Assembly (NCBI GenBank): GCA_963727805.1
Contig: CAVSHF010000003.1
Coordinates: 640,001-704,000 of the forward strand
DNA length: 64,000 nt
Source of the DNA: an uncultured Nitrospiraceae bacterium
GTDB taxonomy: Bacteria > Nitrospirota > Thermodesulfovibrionia > Thermodesulfovibrionales > Dissulfurispiraceae
Reading direction: 5' to 3'
Shown: piece after piece, positions 7,038-50,343 of the stretch
How positions within the stretch are numbered: position 1 is the stretch's first letter
Layout: each line of letters opens with the position of its first letter
Translations under genes and position numbers: made by a program
The notes under the pieces: model-generated
The model's database searches: none
Told to the model about the DNA's origin: nothing
The model's input: only the letters and a program-made list of their open reading frames with translations

Positions 7038-7296
7038 ATAATATGTTTGTCATAATGTTTAGAGATGGGTTCGATGAACCATCATTGGTCGGCAGTTCGA
7101 TATCATTCCTGTTTCCCATGCTCAACCTGCAACTGGAATTCATCATAACATTATTAATTTATCATAACATTATTGTAGAACTGAACTAGGGTAGTTATAT
7201 CCTACCCCTCCGATATTATATTTATTCATATTATAGATCTGTTGAAATCATAAATAAAGAAGAAAATGATGAATATTTGGATATTCCGGGCAGGTT

Positions 7297-9424
7297 TCCG
7301 GGTAGGAGCAGCGATTGCTCGCCACTCCCCCCACAGACCCGGACGAGCCCGATTAAGGCATCCGGTTCGTCAGTAACAAGAGGCATACAGCCTCTGGCTA
7401 ACTAAACGGATTCGACCCGTTTAGCGCATAACTTTGCTGACCTGCATGGTTTAGATATCATGGACTATTCGGGGCGACGGCAGTGGGAACAGCCGCTCCA
7501 GCTTTGGGAATTCATCCTCCCAATTCATCGATCCCTTATTGCTGCGACGACTCAACCAGTAGTGCCACGCCTTCCGTACATGCCTGTAGACAAGCAGCAA
7601 CTTACGGTAATTGCCTCTGATGCCGTAATATTGGTAGTGACCTTTTAACTTAAGGGTTAGAACACGACATTGTTCCTTAAGCGGCTCATGTCGGTGTTCC
7701 CGACACCACTCCCAAGCGCGCTTCATGGCCCGGCGCAGCCTTTTCTTGGCTGTTTGCCGCTTTACTATCCAGTACCCCCGCCGCGTCTTCGCCCAGTAGT
7801 GCGTAAAACCCAAAAAGTCAATGCTCCCATTTTCCTCAGGGTCGCTCTTGCCTTTTGGCCTTCCGAACCTAACCAGCTTCGTCTTTGTCGGGTGTATCGT
7901 TAGCCCGTACTGTTGGAGTCTCTCAGTCAGAACGGGCAATATCCATTGTGCATCAGATTCGTGTTCGCATCCGATTAGAAAGTCATCGGCAAAACGAATC
8001 AGAAAGCTCTGTCCCTTAATGCTGGGCTTCACTTCCTTGACATACCACTCATCCAGCACATGGTGTAGGAATATATTGGCCAGAATCGGCGATATGACTC
8101 CGCCCTGCGGCGTGCCCTTCTCTGGGTATGTCAGAGTTTCCCCTTCTATTACCCCGGCATTCAGCCATTTGCCGATTAGCCGTATTATTCCTCCATCGTT
8201 GACCCTTTGCCTGATTATTTCCAACAGCCTGCCGTGATCGATATTATCGAAATAGCCTTTGACATCCGCATCCACTATCCAGCCGATGTTCCCTTTCACG
8301 CATTTCTGTTGAAGCTCGCTTAACGCCTGATGCTGGCTATGGCCGCGTCTGAAGCCGTGAGAGAAGGCGAAAAAGTCGCTCTCATACACTGCCTCAAGGA
8401 GCATCGCTACCGCACGTTGAACTACTTTGTCTTCAAACGTCGGAAGTCCTAACGGCCTTTCCCCTCCGTCATCCTTAGGTATCCACACCCGGTTTACAGG
8501 CGGAGCATGATACCGTCCTCCCTTGAGTCGTGTGTGCAGCTCCCGTAGATTTTCTTCGAGGTTTGATGCGTATTCTTCTGCTGTGACCCGGTCTATACCG
8601 GGCGCAGCGTCTTTTCGGGTCAGCCTGTAGGCTTCCCGCAAGAATTCCACATCTACGTGGTGCGCCAGCGTAGTGAACACCATCTCCGGATACCGGATGG
8701 CCTGCGCTGCAATCCACCGAAGTTTCGTTGATACGGTTTGTGAGTTCGAAGCCTCTCCCATATTTCCTCTCGGTGAAACGTTATACCCGGCCTCGCCTTC
8801 CCTTCAGTGGGTCCCTTGGTCCTCGGTTCCCCACCTTCCCGGCCCGCTGGGGCCTTCGGTACTATGCTCGGCTAAGACTGCCTCATGTCCATCCCTAGTC
8901 TCTTCGTTTGTCACTCGATTCCCGGTACCACGTTTGCTCTCTGTCTTCGTTCGTCGATGTGCGAGAGCCCTCACCGACGCCTGGGGCTTTTGTTCTTCCG
9001 GTCGCCCTCTTCCCTTCCGGTTCTCAACGTGGAGACATGCGGCCCTCCCAAGTTCCCGATCTATCCCTTTGAATGTATGCCCTGCTCTCAGACCCCGGTG
9101 GTGTTCTGATGCTCGCCATTGCGCATTCAGAACTGCTGTCTTCCAGTTGTCCGAGACTGTCGACTTTCCCTCCAATGCCCTGAAGGTTATCTTACTGACC
9201 ACAATGTCAACGATTTCGGGGCTCACTAACACGGCCTACATTCTCGCTACACCCAGCTCCGCACCTCCCCTCGCGAGGACGCACGCGGGTTCGCTTCCGA
9301 CCTGTTGGCTAAGCTTTGGCCGGATGGGACTTGAGGTTTTCCGCCTCTCACCCATTGGATAGCAACAGCAAATTTCATCTCCTTTTCGCGAGATTCCCGA
9401 TGCCTCGGATTTACCTTGGCGCGA
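7297..9424 (-). mobile_element. Group II intron (RT-encoding, IIB-like, no endonuclease domain) with non-canonical termini 5'-UCGCG...ACCCGGA-3'
   Basis: Domain V hairpin at 7336-7368 (GAACCGGAUGCC...GUCCGGGUC), then domain VI with a bulged A. The EBS1 loop CGGACA (9148-9153) is complementary to the 5' exon end UGUCCG (9425-9430). Removing the intron exactly restores the terminal inverted repeat. Confidence 0.9.
7451..8761 (-). CDS. ltrA: Group II intron reverse transcriptase/maturase
   Basis: APGID, RPLGLPTFEDKVVQ, GTPQGGVISPILANIFL, RFADD, DFLGF and a maturase X-domain region; 436 aa with no HNH domain. Confidence 0.95.
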   Translation of the reverse strand: MGEASNSQTVSTKLRWIAAQAIRYPEMVFTTLAHHVDVEFLREAYRLTRKDAAPGIDRVTAEEYASNLEENLRELHTRLKGGRYHAPPVNRVWIPKDDGGERPLGLPTFEDKVVQRAVAMLLEAVYESDFFAFSHGFRRGHSQHQALSELQQKCVKGNIGWIVDADVKGYFDNIDHGRLLEIIRQRVNDGGIIRLIGKWLNAGVIEGETLTYPEKGTPQGGVISPILANIFLHHVLDEWYVKEVKPSIKGQSFLIRFADDFLIGCEHESDAQWILPVLTERLQQYGLTIHPTKTKLVRFGRPKGKSDPEENGSIDFLGFTHYWAKTRRGYWIVKRQTAKKRLRRAMKRAWEWCREHRHEPLKEQCRVLTLKLKGHYQYYGIRGNYRKLLLVYRHVRKAWHYWLSRRSNKGSMNWEDEFPKLERLFPLPSPRIVHDI

Positions 9425-9498
9425 CGGACACCTATTACGATCTACTTCGGACACTATTCCAATTTAGTTCGGACAGCAATTCAAAATAGTTCGGATAG
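9425..9498. repeat. Left-end array of ~22-23 bp subterminal repeats (consensus ATTCCaattTAGTTCGGACAc), putative transposase-binding sites
   Basis: Units ..CGGACACCT, ATTACGATCTACTTCGGACACT, ATTCCAATTTAGTTCGGACAGCA and ATTCAAAATAGTTCGGATAG. Confidence 0.85.
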
Positions 9499-9768
9499 AT
9501 CATCAGAGCCGTGGTTCCAAAAAGTTCAGTATCAACTTCTTCCTGAATTCTGCAGCTATTTAATGATCTGATAACTGTTTCTTTTATTTCGTACCGCGCA
9601 AAATTGAGAGGACTCTATCGGCGAGAAGTGCTCCATCTTCCAAACTAAGCAAAAAAACATTATTCCGAACACTGAAGCTTAACTTGCATAAGGAAATAGT
9701 ATTTGTTACTATTCAGTTCAACAACAGCTTAAATTGCGTCCAACTAATTTATAACGAAGGATAAAAGA

Positions 9769-10311
9769 ATGAAATTGTTTGCGAAAACCACGAGTATTTT
9801 ATTTCTAATATTATTCGCAGTATTTTCATGGGGCTGTGCTCATGTTGTTGAACCTCATGGACCTTGTGAAATCGGGACTGGCATACGGCCCCTTCAGACG
9901 GGGTATTCGGTCCAGCTTATTAATAATCAGCCCGATACAACACGCGTGTCATTTGCGAGTGCCGGTATACATACATATTTGGCGAATTATAATGAGTGGA
10001 CTCAATACTACATCGATCAACTATCCAATGAACTCACAAAGCGCAATGTCGTGGTATCTAATAAAAGTCCGAACGCTATAAGGATCACTTTGAGTCAGTT
10101 TTTAATGGCGAGATGGACGGGAAGAGGCACTATGACTATTAAATTGGAGACTGCTGACGGTAGGTGGTTTAAAGTTTATGAGGAATCTGAGACATCGGCG
10201 TGGGTCATAGAAACCGCATTTAACGGCGACGTGTGCCATTCAATAGAAATGATATCGAATGATCCAGAGGTGCTTGAAAAGATGCATGAGAGTGCGGCGG
10301 AGAAGAAATAA
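9769..10311 (+). CDS. Hypothetical lipoprotein (passenger gene)
   Basis: Signal peptide with lipobox-like SWGC; AAGGA RBS-like sequence upstream. Confidence 0.7.
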   Translation: MKLFAKTTSILFLILFAVFSWGCAHVVEPHGPCEIGTGIRPLQTGYSVQLINNQPDTTRVSFASAGIHTYLANYNEWTQYYIDQLSNELTKRNVVVSNKSPNAIRITLSQFLMARWTGRGTMTIKLETADGRWFKVYEESETSAWVIETAFNGDVCHSIEMISNDPEVLEKMHESAAEKK

Positions 10312-10611
10312 CTCACTATCTGCGTATCATCTCTACATCTCCGGATTTACTAAATTACCGTCCGGTACAGGCGATAAGTGCGATACGCCGAGGTCTCGAA
10401 GTTCTGCTTAAATCTCGGTTAATTGGTGGGGATAAGAGGTATGAGTCCTTCCTGAAATCCCTGCTTATCAACATATTGGGCAAAGTGCAAATTATTATCG
10501 CAAATCAACTGCGTGGCTATTCCACGCAGAAATAAGGCAACCCGATGAGATTAGGCAAGTATGAAGTCTAACCCTCATCGATGACGCGCTGTAGAATTAT
10601 CCCTTGATAGT

Positions 10612-11148
10612 TTATTTCAGTGTCTTTAGCCTCTCTATATTCTGTCTAATAGCTTTTGCATTAGGCACATTCGGATTAAGGAGGAGCACCTTTTCAAACT
10701 CGCTCACTGCAGTCTTATAATCTTTCTTATCTTCTGAGAGGACAACCCCCATATTCATATGAGCATATAAGTGGTTTGGATTTATGGTTAGGGCTTTTTT
10801 GTATTCCTTGATGGCGAGATCTGGGTTCCCAGAATTTTTAAAGCATGTGCCCATATCCACACGAACATCCACGTTATTCGGATCAAGTTCAAGAGCCTTT
10901 TCGTAAGCACCTACCGCCTCGTTGAATCTTGCCGAGTCCATCATCATGTCTCCAAGCTGTATCAAAGCATTCAAATTCTTCGGGTCTTTAGCGAGCACAT
11001 CTCTAAGGAGTTTTTCTTGTTCTAATGTCTTGCTAGTCAGAGAGCTACTCGGACTACCTGGTTGCGGTTGCTGAGGTTTTGCTTCTTCCTTCTGTTTGCA
11101 TGCGAAAACCACAAAAAACAATAATAAAATAACCAGTATCCTTTTCAT
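10612..11148 (-). CDS. TPR-repeat lipoprotein (passenger gene)
   Basis: Lipobox VFAC, a Gln/Pro/Ser linker and three to four TPR units (e.g. AYEKALELDPNN); GAGGTG RBS. Confidence 0.88.
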   Translation of the reverse strand: MKRILVILLLFFVVFACKQKEEAKPQQPQPGSPSSSLTSKTLEQEKLLRDVLAKDPKNLNALIQLGDMMMDSARFNEAVGAYEKALELDPNNVDVRVDMGTCFKNSGNPDLAIKEYKKALTINPNHLYAHMNMGVVLSEDKKDYKTAVSEFEKVLLLNPNVPNAKAIRQNIERLKTLK

Positions 11149-11415
11149 CTCATCACCTCTAAATAATTTGTAGTATTATAACAGGATATTGTTCGTCATT
11201 TATGTTCTATCAATTGGACTTAAGTCAGCGCTATTCGGATGTGTCTCCAATTAAGAAAAGGGAATATGCACGATGAGTTCTTCCTATAATCTTCGCTCTT
11301 GCAATACATTGGAGCACGTTTGTTAGATAATCATATAGAGGGGACCTCCCCGAGCATATCGGTTAGCGGTATGCTTGAGGTAAGAGAAACAATCTTAACC
11401 TTAAGGAGGTGCTGT

Positions 11416-11548
11416 ATGAGACTGTACACAGGTTTTGATCTTCATTCAAACAATTCATATGTGGGGATCATCGATGAGGATGGGCGAAGGCTATGGAAGA
11501 AGAAACTCCGGAACGATCCTAGTCTGATTTTAGAGACGCTCAGACCGG
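11416..11548 (+). pseudogene. IS110-family transposase N-terminal fragment
   Basis: MRLYTGFDLHSNNSYVGIIDEDG follows an AAGGAGG RBS and resembles the N-terminus of the intact IS110 at 55890. Similarity stops after ~44 codons. Confidence 0.8.
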
Positions 11549-11617
11549 TGTACTTGAGATCAGAAAGGTCGTATTTTTTGGGGCATAATGTCATCGCTAT
11601 GTTAAATCATCCCGTCT

Positions 11618-11713
11618 GGCGTCCGAACTAACTTGGAATAGGTGCCCGAACTGTATTGGAATGTGTATCCGAACTAAATCGGAACGGCTCTCCGAACCTG
11701 CCCGGAATTCCCA
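11618..11713. repeat. Right-end array of four 23-bp subterminal repeats, inverted relative to the left array
   Basis: CCGAAC core every 23 bp (gtccgaactaacttggaat, gcccgaactgtattggaat, atccgaactaaatcggaac, ctccgaacctgcccggaat), ending in CCCA. Confidence 0.87.
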
Positions 11714-11931
11714 ATATTCTAGCCTGTTCACAAAGGTGTTGATTTTTGATGTTCAAAAGACTTATATCCCTTATCAATAAATTGGTAGGGGATTTTTAGA
11801 CAGGTCGGCCTGCCGCGATGGGCCGAGATAATTATACAGTAAGCCCGATTAACTCTACCAGCGACTCCAAATAAGAAAATGTGGTATACTGAAATACATA
11901 GTATTGCTCTGTATTGCAAAAGGAGGTATTC

Positions 11932-12360
11932 ATGAAAAGCCATCAGAAAAGCTGGCGTATTAAAGACCCTATCATCAAGGGGATGGACATTGTACGCAAA
12001 ACCGACCAACCGGAAAACGCGCTTGCTAATGAGCTGCTTGACGAGGCCCTAAGGATGCGAATGCACCTTGGAATAGTCTTCGCCGAAGGGGTCACAGGAA
12101 GACGCGCTCGGATTGCGGGCACCGGAATAGAAGTATGGGAAGTTGTTGATGAGTATAAGGAAGCTGAGTGTGAGGAGGATTTGAAAGAGGCGTTTCCGCA
12201 TTTGACGGACAGGCAGCTCATTGCGGTCTACAAATATTACCGTGCATACCCTGAAGAGATTGACGAGTTGATAAAAATCAACGAGAATATCACTGCCGAA
12301 TCCGTCGCCGGGCTTTTTGCTTTTCGGAAGGAAGGACTTGGGGATGTTTCTGATCGATGA
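11932..12360 (+). CDS. DUF433-domain antitoxin (VapB45-like)
   Basis: GRRARIAGTGIEVWEVV and FPHLTDRQL..YYRAYPEEID; ATG at 11932 follows AGGAGG. Confidence 0.85.
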   Translation: MKSHQKSWRIKDPIIKGMDIVRKTDQPENALANELLDEALRMRMHLGIVFAEGVTGRRARIAGTGIEVWEVVDEYKEAECEEDLKEAFPHLTDRQLIAVYKYYRAYPEEIDELIKINENITAESVAGLFAFRKEGLGDVSDR

Positions 12361-12694
12361 GAACCTAAATGTGGGGATAGCCGAAGTCCTTAAGTCGAAT
12401 GGTATCGATGCAATTCATGTAAACACGCTAGGGCTGGCCGGTGCGTCAGATAGAGAAGTTCTCGATGAAGCCGCCCAGCAAAAGCGATGCGTTGTGACCC
12501 GCAACAGGAATGACTTCCTTGAGCTAACTAAACGTTTCTTCGGCGAGGGGCGTCCTCACCATGGTGTGCTTCTAGTCCCCAAGTCATACCGCCTCAAGGA
12601 TTATGCCAGAATAGCCCACGCCATCGCATGGATGGTCCACAATAACCCTCATGCCTTCCAGCAGTACGCCTTTCTGTTTCTGCCTCCACAGTAA
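12344..12694 (+). CDS. DUF5615 PIN-like toxin (VapC45-like)
   Basis: FLIDENL, GASDREVL, VVTRNRNDF and HHGV; overlaps the antitoxin stop codon. Confidence 0.85.
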   Translation: MFLIDENLNVGIAEVLKSNGIDAIHVNTLGLAGASDREVLDEAAQQKRCVVTRNRNDFLELTKRFFGEGRPHHGVLLVPKSYRLKDYARIAHAIAWMVHNNPHAFQQYAFLFLPPQ

Positions 12695-13722
12695 AACCAC
12701 AATTAAAGAATAATATTACAGGCTGAGGCTTTACGGTTATTTTTCTGCCAGCATCAACACCTTTGTGAACGGGCTAGGATGAATATTAGTACATATGATA
12801 TATTTTGGGTGATCGGATTACGTGTTGATTCAGACTTATTGCACTTTCGATTGCCCCCTCGGGCCATAAATGGTTCCCCAAACACTCTGGGATATAGAAG
12901 CCCAATGAATTCTGGCTGCAACAATAAAAGAAGTAGGCATTTTACAATTCCCAGTGTCAAAACGAATGGGACAGATTCCCCGAATATCCGTACTTCTTCG
13001 TCTTGCTCATATCGGTGACTCTCCCGTCAATCGTATATTTTAACCCTTGATAGTACTATTCATTATCTGGGTCAACCTCTGTATTCTGTGATGTTTGTCA
13101 CCAAATCTCCACATTCATAGTTTCGATGCTAATTTATATCTAGTAAACAACATAAAAAGTGGTATACTGATAGCATACTGAAAGTAGCAAACTACTACTA
13201 AATTGTATGATCTGTATAGATTTGGCTTTATTTAGAGATTCTCATTATATCGATTAGTGAAGAACATGCTGAGGCTGATTAAAGCACAGATAGAAACTCT
13301 ATGCCAATTAGACCTATTGGCTGCTCGCTTTCAGCATCTTATGTGATCATCAGAGAATTCTGATGTACAGGCACAGTTGGAATAGGGATATGTCCTTTTT
13401 CCTCTTCTTGATCGGATTTTAACTCTGATGTAATAGTATTGTAACAGCAAAGTGATATTGTCCTGACGTAATAGTCTCGATTTGCAACATTGGAACCTTC
13501 TCAGTTATCACTGATGTAACTGAGAGAGCGGAGCATTGCCTGAGATTGCGTTTATTATATCAATTGCGTTTAGGTTCATCGGCAAACCTTCAGATAACGA
13601 TGCACTTTCACTTTGCCTCTGATCATCATCAAATTATATTCACAACTATGCTATTTATGCATAATTCCCCGTTTATACGATTGCTCATAATTCCAATATT
13701 ATGTCTTTGAGGGAGAAAGCAG

Positions 13723-49719: not shown

Positions 49720-50343
49720 GGAGAGTAGCGCGGGGGAATCGCACCCCCACGCCCTCGCAGAACCGGACATGAACCTCTCGACTCATCCGGCTCCCATTAT
49801 CCGACCGTTATAAAACGGCGTTGTTTTATCCGACAGTTCCTCCCATCTCTGGTTGACTATCAAATAAAACTGGATAACGCAACCCCTTCACTCGGTTCCC
49901 ATTACAGAACCTTCGTCGCTACTACGGGTTGCTCCGCCACTGTGCCCCGCATCGGTACTCTCATCCTCGTGGGGCCTCCACTTGGACTTCTCCTTTAACA
50001 TCGGGACGACAGCTTCCCGCGTTCCACACAGAAGCCTGAACCAGATTCATGCCACCTTTATGCCGGACACCATCCAGACAGTAAACAGGTCGTCTCCTGG
50101 ACTTTTCCTGGCGTTCGGAAAGCCGCCAGTTTTGATGTCGTCTGATTTTTTTTCGACACCTCATCAGTGGTTCGTTTGCACTCATCTCTCTGGTTCATAC
50201 CTGACACGATCAATGTCGTGCCTTTTCCTTAACGCTCACCACAATGGCTCTTTACCAATGCAGCTTAAGGTGGGTTGAAGCCTGCACCTGTATGCCGGCT
50301 TCGAGGGGCCTCCCCTCATCTCCTGTGCAGCCTCGTGGCGCAC
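49720..50343 (-). ncRNA. ORF-less group II intron (IIB, resembling bacterial class D), ~624 nt
   Basis: 5' GUGCG at 50343. Domain V (GAGCCGGAUGAG..CAUGUCCGGUUC) lies at 49760-49793 and domain VI ends CUACUCUCC. EBS1 UUUCCGAA (50114-50121) is complementary to the 5' exon UUCGGAAA (50344-50351). The 3' end is uncertain by about 1 nt. Confidence 0.88.

Follow-up and report, generated by a model that had tools for sequence, protein, structure and literature searches.

In a window of 64,000 nucleotides (the whole stretch of DNA analysed here), a class E-like group II intron sits within an end repeat of an IS21-type element, and we consider it probable that this intron homes to one position in IS21-type end repeats by means of its EBS1, EBS2 and EBS3 and on the lagging-strand template. 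The genome carries three copies of the intron, which are 99.9-100% identical (0 and 3 nt differences), and all three lie exactly 19 nt inside the TG end, each in a different IS21-type end. The only informative copy among those 99% identical in metagenomes (L100, also 99% at the amino acid level) likewise has a repeat array as its 5' exon, at repeat 2 of a four-repeat end; a second such copy (L110) has no junctions. Every genome copy (3 of 3) and the one informative metagenome copy (1 of 1) thus lie in end repeats, far above chance; on this point the preliminary description is supported, and the insertion is no one-off. What is new here is the addition of a class E intron and of the IS21 family to a strategy already known from RmInt2.

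The intron comprises the following parts (positions are those of the window):
7297-9424, minus strand: group II intron, 2,128 nt, ends UCGCG...CCCGGA
7297-7335, minus strand: domain VI, with a bulged branch-point A at 7303 (DV-DVI fold, z -5.1)
7336-7368, minus strand: domain V, beginning GAACCG
7451-8761, minus strand: intact RT/maturase ORF, 436 aa, with FADD motif (TIGR04416, 349 bits; cut-off 300)
8875, minus strand: gamma nucleotide (U), whose partner is the final A of the intron
9090, minus strand: EBS3 (U), whose partner is the +1 A (from +1-base pairing among relatives)
9153-9148, minus strand: EBS1, CGGACA, in the loop of a CAGT/ACTG hairpin at 9159-9144
9213-9209, minus strand: EBS2, UCGUU, overlooked in the preliminary description
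9425-9436, minus strand: 5' exon, with IBS1 at 9430-9425 (6/6 pairs) and IBS2 at 9436-9432 (score 3/5)

The host element at 7278-11713 is made up as follows:
7273-7277: left target-site duplication, ATATT, 5 bp
7278-7296, plus strand: outermost 19 bp at the left IS21-type end, consisting of the terminal TG and first half of repeat 1; this is also the 3' exon of the intron, with IBS3 the A at 7296 on the minus strand
9425-9498, plus strand: remainder of the left end, with the inner half of repeat 1 followed by repeats 2, 3 and 4, spaced 22-23 nt
9769-10311, plus strand: passenger ORF, 180 aa, without a Pfam or NCBIfam family
10612-11148, minus strand: passenger ORF, 178 aa, a TPR protein
11324-11550, plus strand: fragment of another repeated element, with 82-99% matches elsewhere in the genome
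11620-11713, minus strand: IS21-type right end, four repeats, empty, its target on the leading-strand template
11714-11718: right target-site duplication

Domains I, V and VI, the branch-point A and the RT/maturase ORF are all present, as are the EBS1/IBS1, EBS2/IBS2, EBS3/IBS3 and gamma-gamma' pairings, and together these make this a group II intron. Rfam matches domain I at 9083-9333, and domain V has no match to RF00029 at the gathering score. The branch-point A is bulged in the DV-DVI fold, seven bases from the intron end; an energy fold of the whole of domain I gives a z of only -0.7. An alpha' at the tip of a domain I stem-loop and a 5-nt domain V loop can be fitted by hand, and the computed fold has another domain V register with a 6-nt loop. 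The Pfam scan of the RT returned RVT_1 only, with no endonuclease domain found. No promoter-like site was found directly upstream of the intron.

The intron begins and ends with UCGCG...GGA rather than the canonical GUGYG...AY; boundary variants of group II introns are known, for instance UUGCG...GU (PMC7923331). We regard these non-canonical boundaries as firm, since the same ends (UCGYG with GGA or GGC) recur in relatives that have other exons and since the gamma-gamma' pair covaries with the last intron base (U-A at 34 and G-C at 7 of 41 loci, and nothing else). The last 10 nt of the intron are repeated, with one change, 12 nt further on in the 3' exon (within 7285-7306). In the empty end at position 890,102 of contig C3 of this genome (C3:890,102) this match to the intron end is exact, and in the exon of copy 3 it has 3 changes, so that it is not required.

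As to the host element, the preliminary description had placed the intron 19 bp inside an element end, and this distance, counted from the terminal TG at 7278, is correct. Excision of the intron does restore the end, giving 18 consecutive letters in common with the right end when the latter is followed inward from 11713. The EBS1 hairpin was likewise found where it had been placed, and the core motif, as the 8-mer TTCGGACA with 0-1 change, is present in each of the eight repeats, of which one is interrupted by the intron, three begin the list of intact ones at 9446, 9468 and 9490, and four lie at 11620-11696. By itself this 8-mer shows no enrichment across the window (56 matches; 49.8 +/- 8.0 expected); it is the 22-23-nt spacing and the inverted arrangement that mark the repeats. 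The element has TG...CA termini, four repeats per end and two passenger genes, is flanked on both sides by the 5-bp direct repeat ATATT, and contains no transposase and neither istA nor istB. Its ends are assigned to IS21 because ends about 75% identical flank istA/istB in another genome, G289 (a modest match, E 8e-7 and 7e-5), and we class the element as a non-autonomous IS21-type derivative. In the autonomous IS21 of G289 with these similar ends (L182/L186, on its contig C198), the passenger ORF after istB is presumably DinB-like. The start of the ORF in the fragment at 11324-11550 resembles an IS110 transposase; no HMM family matched the fragment. A plasmid search with the right end gave no match. 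The terminal TG/CA, the 23-bp repeat spacing, the two conserved blocks and the 5-bp duplication are all shared with IS5376 and its IstA (PMC10122671), whereas the element in the window differs from IS21/IS5376 in having no istA/istB, four repeats per end and two passenger genes. Abutting its right end is a second element (11716-12780) with 28-bp inverted repeats, which carries a DUF433 and DUF5615/PIN gene pair, likely a toxin-antitoxin system.

We listed 13 ends or end remnants of the host-element family in the genome, none of them beside istA/istB, and the invaded ends are relics without a transposase. The genome also has nine istAB-coding IS21 copies, of three other types and with other repeat cores, and none of these is invaded. 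In one of these types, a 4-copy istAB family, six repeats have an IBS1 score of 5.5/6, 0/6 have an A at +1, and none is invaded. Uninterrupted ends of the host-element family exist in related genomes, and the flanks that were fetched contain no RT or IS21 genes.

The relatives of the RT were drawn from 169 loci: the best 80 of 122 in genomes, the best 80 of 498 in metagenomes and 9 from a family search, these 9 including the three copies of this genome. By its RT, the intron is class E-like and not class D: it is 45% identical to the RT of the disrupted class E intron of pRmeGR4b and groups with it (support 0.90), this being the single class E reference, taken as S.me.I4 (PMC5894124), in a comparison that took in no class F or g-group reference. 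Identity to the class D introns RmInt1 and RmInt2 is 34-35%, and the class D C-terminal motif, present in RmInt2, is absent from this RT. Among RTs of at least 47% identity within these sets (the two best-80 sets and the 9), there are 37 distinct 5' exons, 4 of which are IS21-type repeats (two labelled by the exon classifier, and L096 and L100 assigned by eye), and all 4 belong to a lineage that is 99-100% identical. The preliminary description had expected homologues to share the IS21-end target, and this expectation was not supported, as the 33 other distinct exons, all at 77% identity or less, comprise 14 attC-like sites (pattern matches only, 7-10 nt after a TAAC-type box), 7 after a GCAAG motif, 12 others and 0 IS21 ends; a periodicity test agrees. 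IS21 genes adjoin only two of the 169 RT loci (L083 and L056), both with distant RTs, and L083 proved to be a case of an IS21-like insertion inside the RT region. Together with its nearest sisters (75-83%), the RT in the window makes up a well-supported group, and those sisters in which EBS1 can be read (77% and 79%) have an EBS1 different from that of our intron. Targeting of IS21 ends would appear to be a recent retargeting and not a trait of the family.

It is possible, though we incline against it, that this is simply an ordinary homing site within a repeated relic: the intron would have drifted ectopically onto an IS end and its EBS adapted, with no selective benefit and no live transposon harmed. 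The sisters at 71-79% identity with other EBS1 sequences and targets, the lack of a transposase at the invaded ends, the 0/9 istAB-coding copies invaded and the absence of any clade-wide enrichment for IS21 ends are all in keeping with such an origin. Yet this account departs from ours in why the intron is there, not in how it came there, and the repeat does give two orientations and several sites per end, a benefit argued for RmInt2 (PMC4615759).

Several of these relatives deserve a note of their own. The 14 attC-like loci (L142, L154, L166, L159, L146, L137, L138, L135, L151, L103, L023, L156, L157 and L167) are class E-like, apparent attC top-strand insertions with UCGYG...GGA/GGC ends and EBS pairing, and on this pattern match they are possibly an under-described attC-targeting lineage. 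Another lineage (L014, L015, L016, L124, L128, L129 and L131) inserts 7-8 nt after the GCAAG motif, at AT-rich and apparently intergenic sites, with EBS2 matches. At L123 two intron copies stand head to tail with no exon between them, whether as a tandem insertion, a circle or an assembly effect. Two sisters were considered as candidates for insertion in IS ends. At L118 (2028-2113) the 79%-identical sister has its end 85 nt upstream of a gene of the IS110 family, perhaps in the non-coding end of that element, a single case; at L011 a sister is placed some 27 nt beyond the edge of a multicopy element, between two transposase genes. At L093/L231 (contig C93 of genome G021; 76% identical) the EBS1 loop does not pair with its own 5' exon, which resembles a repeat present twice, and empty, in this genome. 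The window itself holds a second group II intron at about 49720-50317, with Rfam matches to D1D4-2 and DV-DVI about 600 nt apart; it is likely without an ORF and has about ten related copies in the genome.

Recognition of the site can be judged from pairing among the relatives, which the preliminary description had proposed to examine for IS21 exons and for covariation of EBS1 with the repeat core: the former were confined to the 99-100% lineage, and covariation with the exons was borne out for EBS1-3. EBS1 scores at least 5 with its own exon at 24 of 29 distinct loci, versus 6.5% for swapped pairs; EBS2 scores at least 4 at 19 of 29, versus 32%; and EBS3 forms a Watson-Crick pair with the +1 base at 18 of 20 distinct loci, including 4 of the 6 at which +1 is not A. 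At the occupied sites, copy 3 has one EBS1 mismatch, and copy 2 has an IBS2 score of 4.5; EBS2 pairing is weak at 2 of 4 sites (2.5 and 3 of 5). With introns removed, the genome has 1,257 sites whose pairing equals or exceeds that of the weakest occupied one, and 16 of these are end repeats (of 33 units). That all three occupied sites should be end repeats has a probability of about 2e-6 by chance, with the threshold set afterwards and the copies treated as independent. The use of the outermost repeat by all three genome copies (chance 0.1) is not significant.

By GC skew, with the origin placed near dnaA (C3:2.38 Mb), each of the three occupied ends is on the lagging-strand template. Counting only ends with an outer repeat that passes the threshold, 3 of 3 on the lagging template are occupied versus 0 of 5 on the leading (Fisher p 0.018), and among all 13 ends 3 of 5 versus 0 of 8 (p 0.035), the orientation calls being uncertain for one end near the origin and for the end on contig C4 (near-zero skew). 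A preference for the lagging template would explain why the right end at 11713 is empty, and likewise the near-perfect end at C3:890,102. As every element presents the target in both orientations, the system amounts to a compact natural test for a bias towards the lagging strand.

Pairing and orientation are not sufficient for occupation. Five IS3-type left ends have a perfect IBS1, an IBS2 score of 4 and A at +1, and thus pair as well or better; local skew puts four of them on the lagging template (though it is near zero for one), and none of the five is occupied. Because these well-pairing, favourably oriented ends are empty, it is probable that the RT protein also reads distal target bases, as has been reported for RmInt1-type proteins (PMC4615759). 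The preliminary description, which took EBS1 alone as the address, was too narrow in this respect: EBS2, EBS3 and strand orientation matter too, and probably distal bases. The same empty IS3-type sites, together with the outermost position of all three genome copies, would also suit recognition of the end through bound transposase or end structure and not mainly through base pairing. We find this improbable, as EBS1-3 covary with the exons throughout the clade, no cognate istA was found in the genome, and the strand bias fits access at the replication fork.

Under the explanation we favor, EBS1, EBS2 and EBS3 would pair with the end repeat, the intron would reverse splice into the single-stranded lagging-strand template while its protein probably reads further bases, the three copies would have arisen by retrohoming, and the EBS set would have been retargeted recently, the other members of the lineage being at other sites. 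It is hardly credible, despite the identical offset in all three copies, that one insertion was carried to new sites when the host element transposed or was duplicated: to either side of the intron the three host ends have different sequences, the neighbouring genes are different too, the introns themselves are 99.9-100% identical, and L100 lies at yet another repeat. Copy 1 is in a left-type end and copies 2 and 3 are in right-type ends, so that both end types are usable. The intron was likely active recently, given that its copies differ by 0 and 3 nt and that the ORF is intact. The favored explanation draws on three events in the genome and one or two from metagenomes. In a search of the 68 genomes of the family with the RT (E 1e-80), 4 of the 67 others matched, and in one of 301 genomes of the order with the 5' DNA of the intron, 5 of the 300 others matched; neither gave a copy closer than about 80%.

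Contigs from RNA runs, which show presence only, cover parts of the intron. In run X2, from another study, the 3' junction of the copy in the window recurs with its flank unchanged, so that this is the same insertion; run X1, which may be the source, was left out of the counts, as were parts of runs without cover and runs with small word shares. In run X7 one contig (depth 7.1, a single contig aligned at 90% likeness) joins the 5' junction of the intron to its 3' junction through one 23-nt repeat unit. This joint might come from a pair of introns in neighbouring repeats or from an RNA circle whose cut lies at the following repeat; a circle of comparable kind has been described for Ll.LtrB (PMC6248898). 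Together with the position of L100 at repeat 2, this contig hints that inner repeats are also used. No intron-free joint, spliced or empty, was listed in the four runs, whose contigs again show presence only. The 76%-identical relative at L093/L231, and not the window's intron, accounts for a loose end at 9426 in run X3, and a scan of viral contigs for the 5' junction gave 41 matches with no RT nearby, all judged to be chance.

The preliminary description took the targeting of end repeats to be undescribed, but in Sinorhizobium meliloti GR4 the intron RmInt2 homes into the inverted repeats at both ends of ISRm17 (PMC4615759). Like our intron, RmInt2 is reported to lack an endonuclease and to have all its copies in non-coding IS ends, with relaxed EBS2 pairing and a U-A EBS3/IBS3 pair (PMC4615759, PMC5894124), and in both cases two inverted ends yield one target on the lagging-strand template (PMC4615759). 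On pSymA, three of the four RmInt2 copies adjoin the same transposase gene, in either orientation, and lie roughly 20 nt inside the shared IS end. RmInt2 differs in being of class D, 34% identical to the window's RT, and in that the ISRm17 transposase scores as ISNCY family, not IS21; the target in the window, in turn, is a tandem 22-23-nt transposase-binding repeat in non-autonomous relic ends.

RmInt1, also of class D, inserts inside an IS and not in an end repeat. Like our intron, RmInt1 in ISRm2011-2 combines homing to an IS with a preference for the lagging-strand template, and it is reported to block the spread of its host IS (PMC5894124). The class E/IIE introns S.me.I4 (with whose RT ours groups, as noted above) and Cl.be.I2 are similarly described as lacking an endonuclease and having EBS1-3, but have GUGYG...AY ends where ours has UCGCG...GGA, and the accessible text on them describes no IS-end target (PMC3753933, PMC3552965). 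As for attC introns (IIC-attC and IIB/class E), many of the RT relatives are similarly placed after a TAAC-type box, apparently in cassette orientation, whereas attC is not the target of the window's intron; the IIC-attC introns are described as using the bottom strand and having no EBS2 (PMC7923331). In the openly accessible literature on group II introns and IS21 or transposon ends, supplements aside, we found no case of an intron in an IS21 end.

For the host, the insertion pushes the conserved blocks of repeat 1 apart by 2.1 kb. Two complete repeats at a spacing of 23 bp are required by IstA, which generates 5-bp duplications (PMC10122671); it is plausible, therefore, that the intron immobilizes its host end, as by separating repeat 1 from repeat 2 the insertion would block assembly of the IstA tetramer there. 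Splicing acts on RNA and so does not repair the DNA end, and no co-transposed intron copies were seen in the genome. Silencing of a live transposon is not indicated in this genome, where the invaded ends are relics; since the targets are transposase-free, what the intron mainly gains here is probably a set of safe, multicopy landing sites.

A bolder reading, which we consider unlikely, is that IS21 repeats are a recurrent niche for unrelated introns and that the two are engaged in an arms race: with several repeats per end, introns might stack with a 23-nt repeat as a micro-exon, and live IS21 families might survive by altering the one base, at +1, that EBS3 reads. On this reading the uninvaded 4-copy istAB family, whose six well-pairing repeats all lack A at +1, would be an instance of such escape. 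If that were true, introns would be one of the forces that shape and silence transposon ends. Intron targets evidently change fast, with relatives at 71-79% identity already using other sites, and the UCGCG...GGA clade with its apparent attC top-strand insertions may merit more attention than the copy in the window.
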